64,000 bases of DNA from Squalus acanthias (taxonomy: Eukaryota): NCBI GenBank assembly GCA_030390025.1, contig CM059431.1, positions 120,406,001 to 120,470,000 of the forward strand, given 5' to 3'. A program made the translations under genes and the position numbers. The notes beneath the pieces are model-generated. The model searched no databases. It saw nothing but the letters and a program-made list of their open reading frames with translations, and was not told the origin of the DNA. This document shows positions 4,176 to 56,866 of the stretch, piece after piece; within the stretch, counting starts at the first letter, position 1, and each line of letters opens with the position of its first letter.

Positions 4176-4380
4176 AAAATGAGAAGTCGCACAACACCAG
4201 GTTATAGTCCAACAGATTTATTTAATTTTACAAGCTTTCGGAGCTGTCGCTCCTTCGTCAGGTAAGTTAGCAATGAGAGAATCTCCCAGAATTCACAATT
4301 TAAACCCAGACAAAATCTATTCACATTATTCGCTACAACAAAGAGCACAGCCAAGACAATGAGATGTGTCCCAGGGGGTC
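4176..4380 (-). mobile_element. 205-bp Penelope-like pseudo-LTR fragment (family B) with a 10-bp target-site duplication
   Basis: CTTTGGAACA at 4166-4175 and 4381-4390 interrupts the CR1 frame (FSLEQ|RRLRGDL). Contains a minimal hammerhead motif. PLE assignment is inferred from the hammerhead and TSD. Confidence 0.75.
4228..4265 (-). ncRNA. Minimal type I hammerhead ribozyme motif (family B)
   Basis: The - strand reads TTAC-CTGACGA-A-GGAGC-GACA-GCTCC-GAAA-GCTT-GTAA: CUGANGA/GAAA core, 5-bp stem II, 4-bp stem I, palindromic AAGCTT in place of stem III. Confidence 0.8.
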
Positions 4381-6970: not shown

Positions 6971-7260
6971 CTCCCAGCTCCATACCCTAGCCCAGGAATA
7001 CTGATACATCACCTTTGGGAGAGGAGTGAAGGAAACTGGGGAAATGTCTTTAAGTAAAGACTCTATTTATAAATGATATTTGTTGTACTTGCACACAGTG
7101 CTTTGGGAAATAATAAATGATTCAGTCACTTAGTCCATCTGGTTGCATTTGTTTCCTTCCAGTTGTTGAAAATTAATTAAACTGTAATTTTAACAGGCCT
7201 TTGAATGGTTTGCTGAATTCTAACATTAGAAAATTAATATTGTCTCACGTATTAAACCAA

Positions 7261-7420
7261 GGGGATGAATTTCAGTGAAGTTTCTCCTGCTTGTCCATAG
7301 TAACTTTGGTGGAAGAGCTGTGGAAAACCCCTTGCAGAATGTTGCAAACTCCAAAGTTTCTGTGGCTCTTCCTACAAAGTCTTGGCAGACAAGTGGGAAG
7401 ATCCCAACTGTAATTCACCC
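7261..7420. mobile_element. Short palindromic MITE (related to 47267-47453)
   Basis: Imperfect TIRs GGGGATGAATTTCAGT / ACTGTAATTCACCC; CAA on both flanks; TAACTTTGGYGGAAGA..GGAAA(A)CCCC core shared with 47267-47453. Confidence 0.55.
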
Positions 7421-8780
7421 CAATACTTTGCATCGGCCTTAAAAAAAATTGTCACAAAGTATTCAAAATGGGTAGAAACTGAATCAAACACGAAAGGACC
7501 AAATTGATTTCATTCAAAATGTATTTTATATATTAAGGCCGAGTTACATGGTTGTACGTGAAAAACTTATGGTCTGAAATACATTTTGACATTCCTGTAC
7601 ACAAGAAATTTGGATTAAAATATATTTTTTTTGTTTTAATAGGAGGAACAAACACTGGAATCTTTTGGAAAATTTTGGTTTTGGGGAATACTTTTCTTTT
7701 GAAAGTGTAATGAATAAAGTCTCAAGCCTTGAATTTCCTGCGTGGGAACATCCCGGAAGTTAGACCCGAAAATGCGTCATTTCCACACCCATTCGCCCGA
7801 TCTCAAGATACGCTGCCAATCTAATTAGAATAGGCCCAAATCAGGGTAAACAATCAGGGTCCAAGAGAAGCTTGACACTCATACCATATATTACTTTAAG
7901 AATAAGTATTAACGTTTCAACTCATTCAAACAGCAGGCACACATGTTTAAGAACCTCCAATGGGGGAAGCTTTTCAGTTTGTAATGTGACTTATACTGAT
8001 GCCATAAAATCGCAATAAAAAAACCCACAAAATGCAGAGCAGGTCTCAGTGAGGATAAATAAAGAAAAAGCTCAAAAAATTTACATCAAACACCTGAAAA
8101 ATGATTTTGTTTCCTGCTGCACTTGAAAACCTGGTTGCAATTTGAAGAGAGCCTCTGAGCAAGTACGATTGCAGAAACTGGTGTATGAGGCTCTGTGACT
8201 TGGGGATGCAGCCAGATTTATGAGCAGCGATACGTTCGGGCGGAGGGATCGATAGACGGCCGTAAACTATCGTGGAGATGTGGGTGTATTGTACTTACAC
8301 TTACGCCCAAAATTGACCGATCTTTTCAGCCATGTCATTGCTTTGTGCCCAGGTAACGCATGTTTCTGGGCAAAAATACAGAGGAAGTTTAAGGCTGATG
8401 TGTGGAAACTGGTGAGCAAACCTGGCCTTTATTTTAAACTGATTGTTATTAGTTACTATGTAATATTGCTGCCATCATTAAGGGGCTGATAGACAAATGC
8501 AAAAATAACTGGGGGCGTGGGGGGAGGGGGGTTTGCTGCTTGCAAGTATCACCAGCAAGCTGTCAGAGTCAGAAGCAATGGAATTGGGGGTATCATCCCA
8601 CACCCATTTCCAACCTGACCCTTGTTACCAAAACTGACCTGACCCAACTCCTGATAGCTCTAACATACAACAGCTGGATGTAATTATTGCTCCAGCGCAA
8701 ATGTTAAAATGAATGTAAAAACAACAGAAAACGCTGGAAAAACTCAGCAGGCCAGGCAGCATCCATGGAGAGAGAAACAG

Positions 8781-8817
8781 AGTTAACGTTTCAGGTCGAA
8801 GACCTTTCGTCAGAACT
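8781..8817 (-). ncRNA. Minimal hammerhead ribozyme motif (family A) in the inverted pLTR
   Basis: - strand AGTT-CTGACGA-A-AGGTC-TTC-GACCT-GAAA-CGTT-AACT. Confidence 0.8.
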
Positions 8818-8850
8818 GGATAAAGCAGGAAATGAAATAGATTTAAAGCA

Positions 8851-9969
8851 CCTTCACATGGTCCATCTCCGACTCTTCCCTTCCCTTCCTCGACTTCTCC
8901 GTCTCCATCTCTGGGGATAGGTTATTGACTAACATTCACTACAAGCCCACTGACTCCCACAGCTACCTGGACTACACTTCCTCCCACCCCGCCTCCTTTA
9001 AGGACTCTATTCCATTCTCCCAGTTTCTCCGTCTCCGCCGCATCTGCTCTGACGATGCCACCTTCCATACCAGTGCTTCCGACATGTCTTCCTTTTTCCT
9101 CAACCGAGGATTCCCCTCTACTGTGGTCGACACGGCCATCGACCGTGTCCGTTCTATCTCCCGCACTTCTGCCCTCACCCCTGTCCCTCCCTCCCGGAAC
9201 CACGATAGAGTTCCCCTTGTCCTCACCTTTCGCCCCACCAGCCTCCACATTCAACGTATCATCCTCCGCCATTTCCGCCACCTCCAGCGTGATCCCACCA
9301 CCAAACGCATCTTCCCCTCACCTCCCCTTTCAGCATTCTGCAGGGAGCGCTCCCTCCGCGACACCCTAGTCGCTAAAGGTATCAAGGGATATGGGGAGAA
9401 GGCAGGTACAGGGTACTGAGTTTGGATGATCAGCCATGATCTCATCGAATGGCGGAGCAGGCTCGAGGGGCCGAATGGCCTACTCCTGTTCCTATCTTCT
9501 ATGTTTCTATGTTTTCTCTACCACCCCCAGCACCCCTTCCCCTTCGTCCGGCACCTTCCCGTGCAAGCGCAGGAGATGCAACACATGCCCTTATACCTCC
9601 CCTCTTCCCACTGTCCAGGGCCCCAAACACCCCTTCCAGGTGAAACAGCGATTTACTTGTACTTCCTGCAATTTAGTATACTGTATTCGCTGCTCACGAT
9701 GTGGTCTCCTCTACATTGGGGAGACCAAATGCAGATTGGGTGACCGCTTTGCGGAACACCTCCGTTCAGTCCGTAAGGAGGACCCCGAGCTCCCGGTGGC
9801 CTGTCACTTTAATTCTCCGCTCCACTCCCACTCTGACCTCACCGTCCTTGGCGTATTACACTGTTCCATGGAAGCTCAGCGTAAGCTCGAGGAACAGCAC
9901 CTCATCTTTCGTTTAGGCACCCTACAGCCCTCTGGACTCAATATCGAGTTCAACAATCTTAGATCATAA
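8851..9969 (+). pseudogene. PLE polyprotein C-terminal part: RT thumb, Cys-rich linker and GIY-YIG endonuclease; split by a CR1 fragment
   Basis: PFLDFSV, YKPTDSHSYLDYTSSHP, CKRRRCNTC, NLVYCIRCSRCGLLYIGET, RFAEH, PSGLNIEF. Confidence 0.92.
9372..9514 (+). mobile_element. CR1 3'-end fragment inserted in the PLE ORF
   Basis: KGIKGYGEKAG*, GGCCGAATGGCCTACTCCTG and (TTCTATGT)n tail, matching ~52510-52663. Confidence 0.9.
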
Positions 9970-10247
9970 CCTCAGCCCCTATCACATTTATATTTTATTT
10001 TTTCATCCATACTTTTGTTTGCCCCCCCCCCTTTTTTTTCCTCCTAGAAGCTGGCAGCTGTCCTTCATTCTGCCAGTGCATTTCACACTTCTTTTAGCCT
10101 CAACCTGTCACATTAACACCTCCTCTTGCCTTGATCATCTCTTAATGTCTCTCAATGTCTCTTAATCTCTCCTTTTGTTCTTTCATCCCCTCCCCCTTTT
10201 CCCAGCTTTATCCTTGCTTTAAATCTATTTCATTTCCTGCTTTTTCC

Positions 10248-10284
10248 AGTTCTGATGAAAGGTCTTCGACCTGAAACGTTAACT
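10248..10284 (+). ncRNA. Minimal hammerhead ribozyme motif (family A) in the 3' pLTR, sense to the ORF
   Basis: AGTT-CTGATGA-A-AGGTC-TTC-GACCT-GAAA-CGTT-AACT. Confidence 0.82.
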
Positions 10285-12847
10285 CTGTTTCTCTCTCCAC
10301 GGATGCTGCCTGGCCTACTGAGTTTTTCCAGCGTTTGCTGTTGTTAATTCGGATTTCCAGCATCCGCAGTATTTTGCTATCGTTAAAAAGAATGTATCTT
10401 GATTCAAAGCATTTTGATTGTTTCATTCATAACTTTAGTCAAATTTGCGTTTTGAATTTCCAATTGGCCAGCCACTTTTAATTTGTAGAGCATAGACATA
10501 TTTGACTAATGATACTTCGCACACTTATGAATATAAATAGCTCCCATGAAATGACCAATTGACGAGTGAAGCAGCTCAGGCATGTACAATGAATATTGCA
10601 TTAGTTATTGTAGTGCAAAACTTTGTTGGCTTGGTACCATATATTGTGGAAGCTGGTAAGATGACAGTATTTTCCCAACCTGTTTATTTTCAGCATGTGC
10701 ACGCCCACCAGTAATTTGTTAATTATACCCTTTCCTATGCCGAGGGTGAAGGTTTGGGCTGGAACAATAATTTCACATGTTTGCTGTACTTCAGCTTCAG
10801 GAGGAGTTGGGCATGGACAGGGGTGGGGAGGGGGGCGGGGGGGACAGTCAGGGGGGATAAGTGGCCATTGTTAGATCAGGAATAGTAGCAAGGGCCAGGT
10901 CTAGATGAATCTTGACTCGAAGCATTTGAGCGCAGCTTGATTCAAAATGGATCAGGTAGCTGTGTAGCTATGAGGCCTGGATAAGGAGGGCCTGTGACGT
11001 CCAGATGGACAATAGCAGAAAGTGAGATTTGCAAACATTCCTGCCAGGCATTTAGAAAACTGTCAGTCCCACGCTCTGAACTACTCGATTTACTACTGTT
11101 TCATTTTTCTCCTTGGTTAAGCAGCTCATTGTCTGCTTGAGAAGTGTGAAAATGAAGATTATTGCAAGTACATCCTGACTGGTCAATTTCTGACATTCAG
11201 TGGCACTAAACCAACGGAACGAAACATGGGAGTACCTGCAAGTTTGATTGGCGGCTGTTAGGCATAGGCTAGAGTTATAGCTTCACGAAACTTTAGGCAA
11301 AGAGGACAATATATCAATGTCTAAAAATGTGGTTATTGCCAAAGCACACAAAGCATCCCTTGACTAGATCATTAGGCTAATCTAGCTTTCTGCTGTTCCT
11401 CATCTAGCCTTCATATCTATTCCTTCAGCCAATTTAATTCCAGCTTTCCAAAGTACCAACCCTGTGCGAACTCACATCTTCCCACAATCTGCTGGGGATT
11501 TGATGAATATTTCCTATTATATTGCCAGAGATAACAGATTTAAACCCACTATGAATCTGGCAGCAATTGCTCGTGAATATGGAGAAATTAGACAGTCACA
11601 AAGCTGCAATGTGCAATGGCTGGCAAGGGAGGCAATCTCAGCATGAGACCAACAGGAAATACAGAAGACTTCCGTGTGCCCTCAGTCCACCTCAAAAACT
11701 GAGTGAAACTGGTCCGCATTTCTTTAAAAAAACATCGACTTTTGTAGCTGCACCAATATGAAGAATGACCAGTTATGATGAGCCACAAAAATTTAATTGG
11801 CATGTTAGTACACTTCTGCCCCAATGGCAACAATTTTCAAAGGCACATATGTTATGGAACTCAAAAATAATTTGGATATGGTCTAAGTTCTTTTTTTAAA
11901 TTCATATTCCATGATAGACAATAATGCAAAGAAGCATGATGGATGGATAAACTTGCATTAAATGTGCACTCCTCAGTTACCTGGCTGCATTTATGATATT
12001 AATTCAGTTCTCTTGATTTAAAAACAACTTGGCTCTGAGCCAATCTTACAAAAATAAATCAAAGCAAGTAGTGATTACACAATAATAGTTCCTTCTAATT
12101 TTGATATTACTGTTGCCCTTATTAGTAGATGAATTACCTCAGGTGCTTGTCTGACATTCCGTTGTCCACTATTTCAATGGAGGTATTACCCCATTTATTT
12201 TATTTTAACTGGGTTAATGCCTGCATTCAAATAATAGACAGAGGAATGTCATATGTTAGGCATTCGCCCACTAATATCACAAACAGTATTTACTAACCTT
12301 GAAAGATTGGTAAATCAAGTCAAATGTGCATCAGTTATTGACTTATCCTAACATCCCAGAAGTGACTCAGTTATTATGTGCTTCTTTTATTTAAAAAAAT
12401 GCTTGCTTCAAGACTTATTTTCTGGAATCCAATGCTTTCAATTATAAATAAAACAGCAGCCAAAACAATAATTTAGTTTTCCACAGTGATATAAATTCAA
12501 TCAAGTTCAGCTCCACAGTGGTTTTATATAATAATCTATTACATACATACAAACTTTCTGTGGAATTATTCATTCTGAATGATTTAGCTAAAACCTAGGG
12601 TTGAACATTTGGATAAATATGAAATCCAGATGTTCAATGTAGAATTTGTGAGTGTGGGCAGAAATAGTTCTCTGAGACAATGGTGGACCACAGACACAGC
12701 CCTTCTGTCTCATTCAACTGCCAGGGAACTGGAACACAACAGCCCAGTATCCCACTGTCAAGAAATTCACATAATATCTTCTTCACTTGTTTGCCATAGA
12801 ACTCAGAGGGATTGCCGAATAAAGACATTGCAACTATGGGGCCGAGA

Positions 12848-23937: not shown

Positions 23938-24068
23938 CAAAAGCAAAATACTGCGGATGCTAGAAATCTGAAACAAAAACAGAAAATGCTGGAAACACTC
24001 AGCAGGTCAGGCAGCATCTGTGGAGGGAGAAACAGAGTTAACGTTTCAGGTCGATGACCCTTCGTCAG
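23938..24068 (-). mobile_element. Short PLE pLTR-plus-tail fragment (family A-related) ending at the hammerhead core
   Basis: Homologous to 10252-10380; - strand CTGACGA-AGGGTC-ATC-GACCT-GAAACGTT-AACT at 24036-24068, with the 5' arm of stem I missing. Confidence 0.85.
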
Positions 24069-28139: not shown

Positions 28140-28646
28140 TGATAGCAAAATACTGCGGATGCTGGAACTCCGATATAACAACAGAAAATGCTAGAAAAAC
28201 TCAGCAGGCCAGGCAGCATCCGTGGAGAGAGAAACAGAGTTAACGTTTCAGGTCGAAGACCTTTCGTCAGAACTGGAAAAAAGCAGGAAATGAAATAGAT
28301 TTAAAGCAAGTATAATGCTGGGAAAAGGGGGAGGGGATGAAAGAACAAAAGGGAAGGTCAGTGGTAGGATAGAAAGCAGGAGAGATTAAGAGACATTGAG
28401 AGACATTAAGAGATATACAAGGCAAGAGGAGGTGGTAATGTGACAGGTTGAGGAATAAAGGATGGCTCTAGATGAAGTGTGAATTGCGCTGGCAGAATGA
28501 AGGACAGCTGCCAGCTTCTGGGAGGGAAGAAAAATAGGCCAAACAAAAGGGTGGATAAAAAAATAAAATAAAAATATGTATATATGTGATGGGGGCCGGG
28601 GTTATGATCTGAAATTGTTGAACTCTATGTTGAGTCCAGAGGGCTC
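28140..28646 (-). mobile_element. Penelope-like element 3' fragment (family A): ORF end, 3' UTR, pLTR with hammerhead (28238-28274) and tail
   Basis: PSGLNIEFNNFRS* on the - strand; collinear with ~9925-10381; 12-bp TSD AATT(A/G)AAAAAGA at 28128-28139 and 28647-28658. Confidence 0.9.
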
Positions 28647-50819: not shown

Positions 50820-50919
50820 AAAATAACAACAGAAAACGCTGGAAAAACTCAGCAGGCCAGGCAGCATCCGTGGAGAGAGAAAGAGAGTTGACGTTTCAGG
50901 TCGATGACCTTTCATCAGA
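50820..50919 (-). mobile_element. 100-bp solo PLE pLTR fragment (family A) with a 10-bp TSD
   Basis: ACTTTGGTTC at 50810-50819 and 50920-50929; sequence nearly identical to 8720-8815. Confidence 0.93.
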
Positions 50920-50922
50920 ACT
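50886..50922 (-). ncRNA. Minimal hammerhead ribozyme motif with a GUC triplet
   Basis: - strand AGTT-CTGATGA-A-AGGTC-ATC-GACCT-GAAA-CGTC-AACT. Confidence 0.82.
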
Positions 50923-53668
50923 TTGGTTCGGTGTTTACTGTGGAGGACACACACAACCTGCCGGAAATAAAAGGGGTCAGAGGATCTGGTAAGAGGGAGG
51001 AGCTGAGGGAAATCCTTATTAGTCGGGAAAAGGTATTGGGGAAATTGATGGGACTGAAGGCTGAAAAATCCCCGGGGCCTGATGGTCTGCATCCCAGAGT
51101 ACTTAAGGAGGTGGCCTTGGAAATAGTGGATGCATTGACGATCATTTTCCAACATTCCTTAGACTCTGGATCAGTTCCGATGGAGTGGAGGGTGGCCAAT
51201 GTAACCCCTCTTTTTAAAAAAGGAGGGAGGGAGAAAGCAGGGAATTATAGACCGGTCAGCCTGACATCGGTCGTGGGTAAAATGATGGAAGCAATTATTA
51301 AAGATGTCATAACAGACCATTTGGAAAGTGGCGACATGATAGGTCCAAGTCAGCATGGATTTGTGAAAGGGAAATCATGCTTGACAAATCTTCTGGAATT
51401 TTTTGAGGATGTTTCCAATAGGGTGGACAGGGGGGAACCAGTAGATGTGGTGTATTTGGACTTTCAGAAGGCCTTCGACAAGGTCCCACACAAGAGATTG
51501 GTGAGCAAAGTTAAAGCACATGGGATTGGGGGTAATGTGTTGACGTGGATTGAGAACTGGTTGGCACACAGGAAACAAAGAGTAGGAGTAAATGGGTACT
51601 TTTCAGAATGGCAGGCAGTGACCAGCGGGGTACCGCAGGGTTCGGTGCTGGGACCCCAGCTGTTTACATTATATATTAATGATTTGGACGAAGGGATTAA
51701 ATGTAATATCTCCAAATTTGCGGATGACACTAAATTGGGAGGCAGTGTGAACAATGAGAAGGATGCTAGGAGGCTACAGAGTGACTTGGACAGGTTGGGT
51801 GAATGGGCAAATGTATGGCAGATGAAGTACAATGTGGATAAATGTGAGGTTATCCACTTTGGTGGTAAAAATAGAGAGGCGGACTATTACCTGAATGGTG
51901 GCAGATTAGGGAAAGGGGAGGTGCAACGAGACCTGGGCGTCATGGTACATCAGTCACTGAAGGTGGGAATGCAAGTGCAGCAGGCAGTCAAGAAAGCAAA
52001 CGGAATGATGGCCTTCATAGTAAGGGGATTTGAGTACAGGAGTAGGGAGGTGATGCTACAGTTGTACAGGGCCTTGGTGAGGCCACACCTGGAGTATTGT
52101 GCGCAGTTTTGGTCTCCTAACTTAAGGAAGGACATTCTTGCTATTGAGGGAGTGCAGCGAAGGTTCACTAGATTGATTCCTGGGATGGCCGGACTGACAT
52201 ATCAAGAAAGATTGGGTCAACTGAACTTGTATCCTCTGGAGTTCAGAAGAATGAGGGGGGATCTTATAGAGACATTTAAAATCCTGACTGGTTTAGACAA
52301 ATTAGATGCGGGCAGAATGTTCCCAATGTTAGGGAAAACTAGAACCAGGGGTCACAGTCTAAGGATTAAGGGGAAGCCATTTAAGACTGAGCTGAGGAGG
52401 AACTTCTTCACCCAGAGAGTGGTGAATCTATGGAATTCTCTTCCACAGAAGGTTGTTGAGGCCAGTTCGCTAAATATATTCAAAAGGGAGTTAGATATAA
52501 CACTCACAACTAGGGGGATCAAGGGGTATGGCGAGAAAGCAGGAATGGGGTACTGAGGTAGCATGTTCAGCCATGAACGCATTGAATGGCGGTGCAGGCT
52601 CGAAGGACCGAATGGTCTACTCCTGTACCTATTTTCTATGTTTCTATGTTTCTATGTTTCTATGACATTAATAAACTTGCAGAATGGGCATATAATTGAC
52701 CTGTGAAGTTCAACACAGATAAATGTGAAGTATTACATTTTGGTAGGAAGAATAGGGAGGTCACTTATAACTTGGAAGTTGCGACTCTAGGTGGGGTAGA
52801 GGAACAAAGGGATCTCGGAGTACAAATACATAAATCACTAAAAGTTGTGACACAGGTTAGCAAGGCCATATTAAAAAATCAAACCAAGCACTAGGGTTTA
52901 TACCTAAAGGTATAGAATTGAAAAGTAGGGAAGTTATGCTAAACTTGTATCAAACCTTGGTTAGACCACACTTAGAGTGCTGCATACAGTTCTGGTCACC
53001 ATATTATATGAAGGATATAGAGGCACTGGAGAGGGTGCAGAGAAGATTTAAAAGGATGATACCAGAAATGTGAGGGTATACATATCAGGAAAGAATGAAC
53101 ATGCTGGGTCTCTTTTCTCTTGAAAAAAGAAGGCTGAGGGGTGACCTAATAGAGGTCTTTAAAATTATAAAAGGTTTTGATAGAATGGATACAGAGAGAA
53201 TGTGCCACTTGCGGGGAAGAGCAGAACTATAGTCCATCAATATAAGATAGTCACCAAGAAATCCAATAGGGAATTCAGAAGAAACCTCTTTACCCAAAGA
53301 GTGGTGAGAATGTGGAACTCGCTGCCACAGGGAGTGGTTGAAGCAAAAAGTATAGATGCATTTAAGGGGAGGCTAGACAAGCATATGAGGGAGAAGGGAA
53401 TAGAGGGTTAAGCTGAAAGATTTAGATGAGGAAAGATGGGAGGAGGCTCGAGTGGTGCATAAACACCGGCATGGACTGGTTGGGCCGAATGGCCTGTTTC
53501 TGTGCCGTATATCTCTTGTAATCCTATGTAATTTAACAAAAGTTCCCTGTGACATACTATGTGTGTGAGACTTAACAACATGTCTAAATTATCAACCAAG
53601 AAGATCACTGGGATCTCATTAAACCTCATTTGGCTATAAACACTAGAACCTCATAGGATAGACTCCTG

Positions 53669-56653: not shown

Positions 56654-56866
56654 ACAAAAGCAAAATACTGCAGCTGTTGGAAATCTGAAATAAAAACAAA
56701 GAATGCTGGAAGCACTCAGCAGGTCAGGCAGCATCTGTGGAGCGAGAAGCAGAGTTAACATTTCAGGTTAATGACCTTTCATCAGAACTTTCACCGACCT
56801 GAAACTTTTACTCCATTTCTCTCTCTACAGATGCTACCTGACCTGCTGAGTGTTTCCACCGTTTTC
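56654..56866. mobile_element. ORF-less PLE derivative: two inverted pLTR pieces with a decayed hammerhead
   Basis: 56654-56790 (-) plus ~56795-56866 (+); 12-bp TSD GACATTA(C/T)TTTA at 56642-56653 and 56867-56878. Confidence 0.82.

Follow-up and report, generated by a model that had tools for sequence, protein, structure and literature searches.

Positions 8718 to 10381 of a 64-kb stretch of DNA (64,000 nucleotides, here called the window) carry two hammerhead motifs on opposite strands, one near each end. What is this unit, how did it come by an inverted end, and would its hammerheads cut the transcripts that cross it? We consider it probable that the unit is a dead Neptune-type copy of a Penelope-like element (PLE), that its inverted arm arose by double priming and that its two motifs are masked passengers.

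We analyzed the boundaries of the unit. Positions 8718 and 10381 lie flush, with zero offset, against a direct repeat of 15 bp (left copy, AT-rich, 8703 to 8717; right copy, 10382 to 10396; both on the + strand) in which 14 of 15 positions are identical, and the 15-mer occurs at just two places on the + strand of the window. As in endonuclease-positive PLEs, this target-site duplication encloses the entire unit, a thumb piece is followed by an endonuclease piece (the reverse transcriptase [RT] core itself is truncated away), and direct and inverted pLTR sequence (an arm of 131 nt) is accompanied by a tail of 36 nt at one end, within the 30 to 40 bp of such elements. The domains, the homologs and the duplication thus agree with the PLE identity put forward in a preliminary description of this DNA, and we are nearly certain both of that identity and that the architecture is one already known.

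The coding remnants were then compared with related proteins. The ORF piece at 8851 to 9371 (+), truncated at its 5' end, contains the end of the RT and the thumb and no RT catalytic core; over 174 amino acids it is 40% identical to residues 582 to 753 of a protein (P0016) whose domain order is RVT_1 and then GIY-YIG. The piece alone had no Pfam match. It is followed at 9372 to 9513 (+) by a secondary insertion, a LINE 3' end comprising the final ORF2 codons, the 3' UTR and a short octamer-repeat tail; this insert is 85% identical to 52515 to 52651, where a LINE whose ORFs contain RVT_1 and Exo_endo_phos_2 terminates. About 3 PLE bases are missing at the insertion site, no target duplication was seen at the flanks of the insert, and the loose-end consensus of 32 family contigs continues through the site without it. 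We take the insert to be of CR1 type (HER1). HE1/HER1 elements are listed for sharks and rays.

Downstream of the insert, positions 9514 to 9969 (+) encode, up to the stop codon, a CX4CxxC linker and a GIY-YIG endonuclease with CCHH residues, as recognized from Pfam, homologs and alignment. The Pfam match to GIY-YIG (E 5e-4) scored 20.7 bits, under the cut-off of 22.6. The piece has 43 homologs, the best of which are shark and ray proteins by name (63 to 69% identity), and in the alignment the columns C16, C21, C59, H81, H97 and YIGET are invariant. A pyrimidine-rich 3' UTR (9970 to 10247, +), shared with the copy at 28141 to 28645, closes with a pyrimidine tract and CAG at the edge of hammerhead helix I.

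Neptune and Poseidon are the PLE clades reported from vertebrates. A CX2-5CxxC linker between RT and endonuclease together with a CCHH endonuclease is given as a trait of the Neptune clade in PMC8557442, and both are present here; the linker also occurs in Nematis, and with the RT core for placement missing, the assignment would go by linker and endonuclease. The unit is likely a dead copy of a Neptune-type PLE, inserted in 5'-truncated form: its RT is truncated, its coding sequence is interrupted at about 9372 to 9513 and it has no direct 5' pLTR. The host is likely a genome of shark or ray type. Among 128 of the 130 window frames of at least 95 amino acids, Pfam matches above cut-off were to transposon domains only, a search that small host exons would escape, so that the locus may be intronic. 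The family is abundant, with 44,659 and 59,128 contig records from two DNA runs aligning to 961 bases of the element. Across the right junction, one contig among those listed reaches 22 letters into the element, not enough for bridging. Two runs presumed to be RNA do not cover the right flank (10411 to 10480), which has no bearing on expression; all four runs compared consisted of contigs, and no evidence of transcription was seen at the locus. Two pattern scans of metagenome contigs found no locus, and a protein-alignment scan of viral contigs confirmed none of 43 pattern matches.

We then compared the two arms. Positions 8720 to 8850 match 10345 to 10215 over 131 nt with 96% complementarity (5 differences), so that 8718 to 8850 (-) is an inverted copy of the 3' end with two extra bases at 8718 and 8719. 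The remainder of the pLTR (10285 to 10345, +) is common to both arms, and the left arm ends where 10345 would match and hence is without the 36-nt tail (10346 to 10381, +), which is found at the direct end only. Each arm is uninterrupted across the predicted cut site, and the left arm mirrors sequence 1364 nt distant, not DNA at the junction. The upstream end had been called an inverted pLTR without the tail; inversion and missing tail are as described, but it is no true 5' pLTR, rather an inverted, 5'-truncated copy. Among copies of the family in the window, the tail is absent from the inverted arm in both fold-back insertions and present in 4 of 5 direct copies. A search for a target-site duplication around the 24-kb copy of the family found none.

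A PLE with an inverted 5'-truncated copy and a tail of 30 to 40 bp at one end is described as typical in PMC8557442 (Craig et al. 2021) and PMC3846280 (Arkhipova et al. 2013). These endonuclease-positive units share with 8718 to 10381 the order of RT and GIY-YIG, the pLTR, the inverted copy at the 5' end, the one-sided tail and a short duplication. The rotifer cases presented there have duplications of 8 to 10 bp versus 15 bp here, and unlike those units the present copy lacks a direct 5' pLTR and is interrupted by a LINE end.

How could the inverted arm have formed? By double priming, an endonuclease would nick AT-rich DNA at two points 15 bp apart. The 3'-OH of the bottom strand would prime at a distal start (10381), from which about 1.4 kb, the later insert uncounted, would be copied up to a stop in the thumb; the 3'-OH of the top strand would prime at a proximal start (about 10345), from which 131 nt would be copied. 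The two first-strand cDNAs would then be joined head to head at 8850/8851, and both templates would be element RNA that was uncut and continuous across the hammerhead cut site. According to PMC11167929 (Frangieh et al. 2024), the protein of PAc, a Poseidon element of Anolis carolinensis, cleaves and extends both target strands from two start sites that bracket the tail; it uses unprocessed RNA as a template, and the hammerhead cuts only with the protein. PAc resembles the present element in its hammerhead upstream of the tail, its AT-rich target and its copies ending on either side of the tail, and differs in that it belongs to another clade and is active and full length. Double priming has as its basis a pair of fold-back insertions and in vitro experiments on an element of the Poseidon clade, which belongs to another family; we judge its chances to be even.

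The same arm could have formed if the 5' end of an originally longer insertion folded back and primed itself, the direct 5' pLTR and the greater part of the ORF being lost to a later internal deletion; a full-length 5'-end fold-back followed by an internal deletion yields a picture identical to that of double priming. At 56659 to 56866 an inverted arm immediately adjoins a direct copy that begins at helix I, and each of the two fold-backs in the window has arms of a single subfamily, both of which are consistent with self-priming. For rotifer Penelope elements, PMC3846280 documents inverted junctions of palindromic form, puts forward self-priming with an antisense template and shows one copy in which an inverted pLTR is combined with an internal, microhomology-mediated deletion. 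Against this origin, the joint at 8850/8851 has neither a palindrome nor a remnant of a direct 5' pLTR, a second event is needed, and the end of the inverted arm at the tail boundary is not explained by itself. We regard self-priming as possible but rather unlikely.

To describe the hammerheads, we used a strict descriptor of the minimal motif. It had 5 matches in the window, namely both arms, two further family copies and one motif of another family, and none in 300 shuffled 64-kb windows; Rfam gave no hammerhead family between 7000 and 12000 up to E 10. The earlier reading as minimal hammerheads of type I whose helix III is palindromic is supported, and every letter of the motif is found in both arms, at 10248 to 10284 (+, N7=U) and 8817 to 8781 (-, N7=C). 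Each arm has CUGANGA, GAAA and NUH with helices I and II and a palindromic 15.2-16.2. On the + strand, helix I (10248-10251/10281-10284) is followed by C3-A9 (10252-10258), an extra A (10259), helix II closed by A-U (10260-10264/10268-10272) and G12-A15.1 (10273-10276); the palindrome occupies 10275-10280 and the GUU triplet 10278-10280. The cut is predicted, as proposed before, between 10280 and 10281 (8785/8784 on the - strand). A weak repeat at 7899 to 7919 is without a hammerhead core and was set aside as chance.

These motifs resemble the minimal hammerheads (min-HHR) described from metazoan PLEs by Cervera and De la Pena (2014, PMC4209133) in CUGANGA, the extra base between 9 and 10.1, GAAA, the palindromic 15.2-16.2, the short helix I and the C-G-U-U ending (15 of 56). 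By our hand count over the 56 motifs in Fig. S3 of that paper, which include no cartilaginous fish, GUU, which had been called unusual, is the commonest triplet (15/56), with GUC in 14/56 and U17 in 24/56. Less common is closure of helix II by A-U (A10.1-U11.1), seen in 3/56, where G comes first in 51/56; in the window the consensus though not universal G10.1-C11.1 pair is replaced by A-U in 5 of 7 rows and G-U in 1, and is unpaired in 1. A PLE at a proviral locus of Cotesia congregata (Fig. S4A of PMC4209133) is likewise 5'-truncated with a second, opposite-strand motif at its 5' end. Because the two motifs here lie on opposite strands around coding remnants, the unit is not a non-LTR retrozyme, defined in a 2026 preprint by tandem non-coding units with at least 2 consecutive same-sense hammerheads.

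Would the locus cleave? The preliminary description had each read-through transcript carrying one ribozyme. There is indeed one sense motif per RNA, but the two-way cleavage that this implied is doubtful: in both directions of transcription the 131-nt antisense arm precedes the motif, and the single sense copy has no same-sense dimer partner. In equilibrium secondary-structure models, which leave aside tertiary contacts and proteins, the antisense arm pairs with the sense motif at a mean probability of 0.999 (+) and 0.972 (-), with 127 and 128 of 131 arm positions paired arm to arm, and the double-hammerhead structure has -10.9 kcal/mol versus -19.8 and -23.4 for a pair of monomers folded into an inactive structure. 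In PMC4209133 a single minimal hammerhead was not cleaved, and dimers were cleaved at a low level only. Read-through RNA would likely have its two ends paired and go uncut, and the two motifs are predicted to be inherited passengers, masked in any such transcript. We hold it very likely that the hammerheads are inert at this locus.

The intact core and helices of both motifs, and the presence of one sense motif per strand, would suit a two-way cassette acting on every host transcript that runs across the locus. The predicted pairing with the antisense arm, transcribed first either way, and the poor cleavage of minimal monomers and dimers speak against it, as do the A-U closing of helix II and the scattered differences (5/131 between arms, 1/15 in the duplication), which are as expected under drift. 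We consider such a cassette extremely improbable.

Among 7 window copies, 0 of 71 core cells differ compared with 29 of 385 downstream (Fisher p 0.014, for copies that are related and with several of the free sites CpG). Since the core is better kept than the downstream sequence, the motif may have mattered in the source elements, and this weighs against passenger status in the family as a whole. Covariation was seen in none of 9 pairs in the 7 window rows, the copies being too alike. In active source elements, the motif is probably a slow, protein-assisted, dimer-dependent ribozyme.

Such a ribozyme could cleave during replication, dimers releasing a unit that is ligated to a circle, with copies crossing the cut site as the circle restores it. 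A circle model was proposed in PMC4209133. No core position varies among the 7 window copies, changes falling mainly at N7, loop II and 15.2-17, and in four runs N7 (10256) and loop II (10265) are the variable hammerhead positions among 40 of 148 rows; head-to-tail joints of a unit of about 130 nt are present in both DNA runs. Yet none of the 7 window copies starts at the cut site 10281, whereas 3 start at helix I (10247 to 10252), as short copies of the family often do, and both tandem joints lead back to 10245 and 10251 instead of 10281. In PMC11167929, the anole element still inserted normally when its hammerhead was mutated, and reads ending at the cut site were absent; of nine Xenopus retrozyme dimers, one was cleaved in vitro. 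Cleavage in replication is unlikely in our judgment. Splicing at an acceptor-like site at 10249 is possible but not supported: no joint ended at 10249 among 15 of 93 listed, and the loose ends there have no common upstream sequence.

A further possibility, which we think improbable, is that the palindrome is mainly an RNA dimerization signal. It would pair two uncut pLTRs and thereby let a dimeric RT-endonuclease start on both nicked target strands at the same time, one from each end of the tail, with the RNA starting at the first base of helix I. If so, the many copies of about 100 to 135 nt would be run-off cDNAs, fold-back insertions would be a fossil print of the double-priming step, and the motif's retention despite poor cleavage, and its being dispensable for insertion in vitro, would be explained. 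Taken singly, this locus carries little weight, being a dead member of an abundant family with a layout that has been published since at least 2013-2014; it is useful as a clean, duplication-bounded example for the origin of the inverted copy and the one-sided tail and for the role of the hammerhead.

Reading the sequence directly, we found the hammerhead motif at 10248-10284 on the plus strand and at 8817-8781 on the minus strand, as the preliminary description had claimed. Both motifs lie in a 131-nt inverted repeat (8720-8850 versus 10215-10345), the arms of which are oriented head to head and are 96% complementary, with five differences. The proposed ends of the Penelope-like element (PLE), 8718 and 10381, were borne out: each adjoins a 15-bp direct repeat (14/15 identical), and the left copy of this repeat has only two matches on the plus strand of the window, both at the element ends. 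The upstream terminal repeat (pLTR) is indeed inverted and without the 36-nt tail (10346-10381), since its left end corresponds to about 10345, not 10381. The left arm is the mirror image of sequence 1364 nt distant, not of the DNA at the junction.

Between the arms lie two coding pieces. The end of the reverse transcriptase (RT) and the thumb (8851-9371) match residues 582-753 of P0016 at 40% identity (174 aa aligned). This protein is 902 aa long and has RVT_1 followed by GIY-YIG; the RT catalytic core is absent from the element. The second piece (9514-9969) codes for a GIY-YIG endonuclease preceded by a CX4CxxC linker; the Pfam match to the endonuclease, at E 5e-4, falls short of the cut-off. 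Of 351 candidates compared with this piece, 43 were homologs, and the best of those with names come from skates, rays and sharks. The cysteines, histidines and YIGET are invariant in the alignment of these homologs. Since such a linker marks Neptune and Nematis in the available text of PMC8557442, and since the PLEs of 35 animal genomes (31 from vertebrates) were sorted into Hydra, Naiad, Neptune or Poseidon in that of 10.64898/2026.07.22.740005, the element likely belongs, by its sequence, to the Neptune clade. The 3' end of a LINE separates the two pieces (about 9372-9513) and is 85% identical to 52515-52651, the end of a LINE whose frames encode endonuclease and RT; the consensus of loose ends from 32 family contigs runs through without this insert. 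The stretch 8718-10381 is real, well bounded and an ordinary PLE copy, and this copy is dead.

Among 130 frames of at least 95 aa across the window, domain matches above the Pfam cut-off were to transposon domains only, namely LINE RT and endonuclease near 48.5-52.6 kb and DDE_Tnp_4 or Myb/SANT pieces near 15.3, 21.5, 41.8-42.3 and 63.7 kb. Four shark or ray proteins named as host genes (P0004, P0006, P0009 and P0007) contain the PLE linker-endonuclease piece, which exonisation or mis-annotation would account for. In P0007, the C-terminus looks like the hammerhead region translated through.

The arrangement of the element is already in print. As far as the text of the sources extends, PLEs typically have an inverted and 5'-truncated copy next to their 5' end, and one of their ends bears a tail of 30-40 bp (PMC8557442, PMC3846280); motif pairs on opposite strands were reported in 2014, and a 5'-truncated Cotesia PLE carries another motif at its 5' end, on the opposite strand (both PMC4209133). 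Cartilaginous fish do not appear among the 56 motifs of PMC4209133, and a search confined to the literature found no paper on this shark/ray PLE family.

A strict minimal-hammerhead descriptor matched five times in the window; 300 shuffled windows yielded no match. An Rfam search of 7000-12000 gave no match to a hammerhead family up to E 10, presumably because the motif lacks helix III. The motif fits the minimal type I hammerhead consensus published by Cervera and De la Pena (PMC4209133): helix III is absent, one additional base stands between 9 and 10.1, and 15.2-16.2 is palindromic. The GUU triplet had been called unusual; in the alignment of that paper it is the commonest by our hand count (15/56, against 14 for GUC and 24 for any U17), and one window copy of the family has GUC. 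Rather, it is the A-U closing pair of helix II that is less usual: this helix opens with G in 51 and with A in 3 of those 56 motifs. Among seven window rows, differing cells numbered 0/71 in the core (11 positions), 3/113 in the helices, 11/53 at free positions and 29/385 downstream; the core-downstream comparison (Fisher p 0.014) is only indicative, since the copies share ancestry and several of the free positions are CpG sites. Helix pairs changed on both sides were 0/9 in these rows. Among the 40 of 148 rows listed from the sequencing runs, the variable hammerhead positions were N7 and loop II.

The family is abundant, with 44,659 and 59,128 contig records matching 9520-10480 in two DNA runs, and five further pieces lie in the window. 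Two of these form a second, older-subfamily fold-back insertion of about 210 bp (56659-56866), in which a tail-less inverted arm adjoins a tail-bearing direct copy that begins at helix I; a 12-bp duplication (11/12), found with a small offset, surrounds it. The others are direct copies on the minus strand: 50821-50922, which has GUC, lacks the tail, begins at helix I and interrupts the ORF of a LINE; 23942-24068, which begins at C3; and 28141-28645, which begins close to where the endonuclease frame ends. Thus, in the window, both inverted arms lack the tail and four of five direct copies have it. A minimal hammerhead at 4228-4265 (minus strand), with a G-C-closed helix II, a 4-bp helix I, another 6-base palindrome and a CUU triplet, probably belongs to the terminus of a different PLE family. 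In each of the two DNA runs, X1 and X5, one contig joins 10374 to 10245 and another joins 10383 to 10251, head to tail; retrozyme-like tandems of the ~130-nt hammerhead unit may be present at other sites of the genome.

Three of seven copies in the window start at the equivalent of 10247-10252 and none at that of 10281, just past the predicted cut (between 10280 and 10281). Among the 24 of 2186 rows listed, loose ends piled up not at the predicted cut site but, in X5, at 10247 (96 contigs) and 10249 (143) and, in X1, at 10249 (205) and 10250 (159); the sequence upstream of them was long and unrelated (agreement 0.33-0.35). These starts suggest that an RNA or cDNA terminus falls where helix I begins. 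The 10247-10252 site is initiator-like and is also splice-acceptor-like. In Drosophila virilis the intron ends at this helix I edge, according to the available text of PMC4209133.

The polarity of both insertion ends, shared by 56659-56866, is that of first-strand cDNA primed from a target 3'-OH. In the part of PMC11167929 at hand, the PLE protein of Anolis carolinensis, a predicted dimer, nicks AT-rich DNA on both strands and extends each of them, and its reverse transcription has two internal start sites, one on either side of the tail. We infer that the element most likely arose when both target strands primed reverse transcription: cDNA started at the distal site (10381) would form the right end and cDNA started at the proximal site (about 10345) the left, and the 15-bp duplication would come from nicks 15 bp apart. 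Self-priming at the end of a longer insertion followed by internal deletion, described in the available text of PMC3846280, is a less likely alternative, and a simple snap-back does not yield a left arm mirroring sequence 1364 nt away. Both arms cross the predicted cut site unbroken, and therefore the templates were uncut or re-ligated; that the palindrome dimerises two uncut pLTRs and so enables the double priming seems improbable.

Transcripts crossing the locus were expected to carry one ribozyme in either direction. Each would contain one sense motif, but cutting is unlikely: because the arms lie head to head, transcription in either direction would produce the antisense arm ahead of the sense motif, with which that arm is predicted to pair. 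In folds of 8690-10410, computed as secondary structure without tertiary contacts or protein, arm-to-arm pairs formed at 127 (plus) and 128 (minus) of 131 arm positions, and the bases of the motif were paired with the opposite arm at a mean modelled probability of 0.999 and 0.972, respectively. Folded alone, the motif prefers to pair its core with the palindrome, and the double-hammerhead structure reached -10.9 kcal/mol versus -19.8 and -23.4 for two such misfolded monomers. Published cleavage tests, as far as their text was available, agree with this result: a single minimal motif did not cleave and dimers cleaved weakly (PMC4209133), the anole motif cleaved only with the protein of its element (PMC11167929), and one of nine Xenopus retrozyme dimers cleaved (10.64898/2026.07.22.740005). 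A transcript crossing the element, if made, would probably not be cut.
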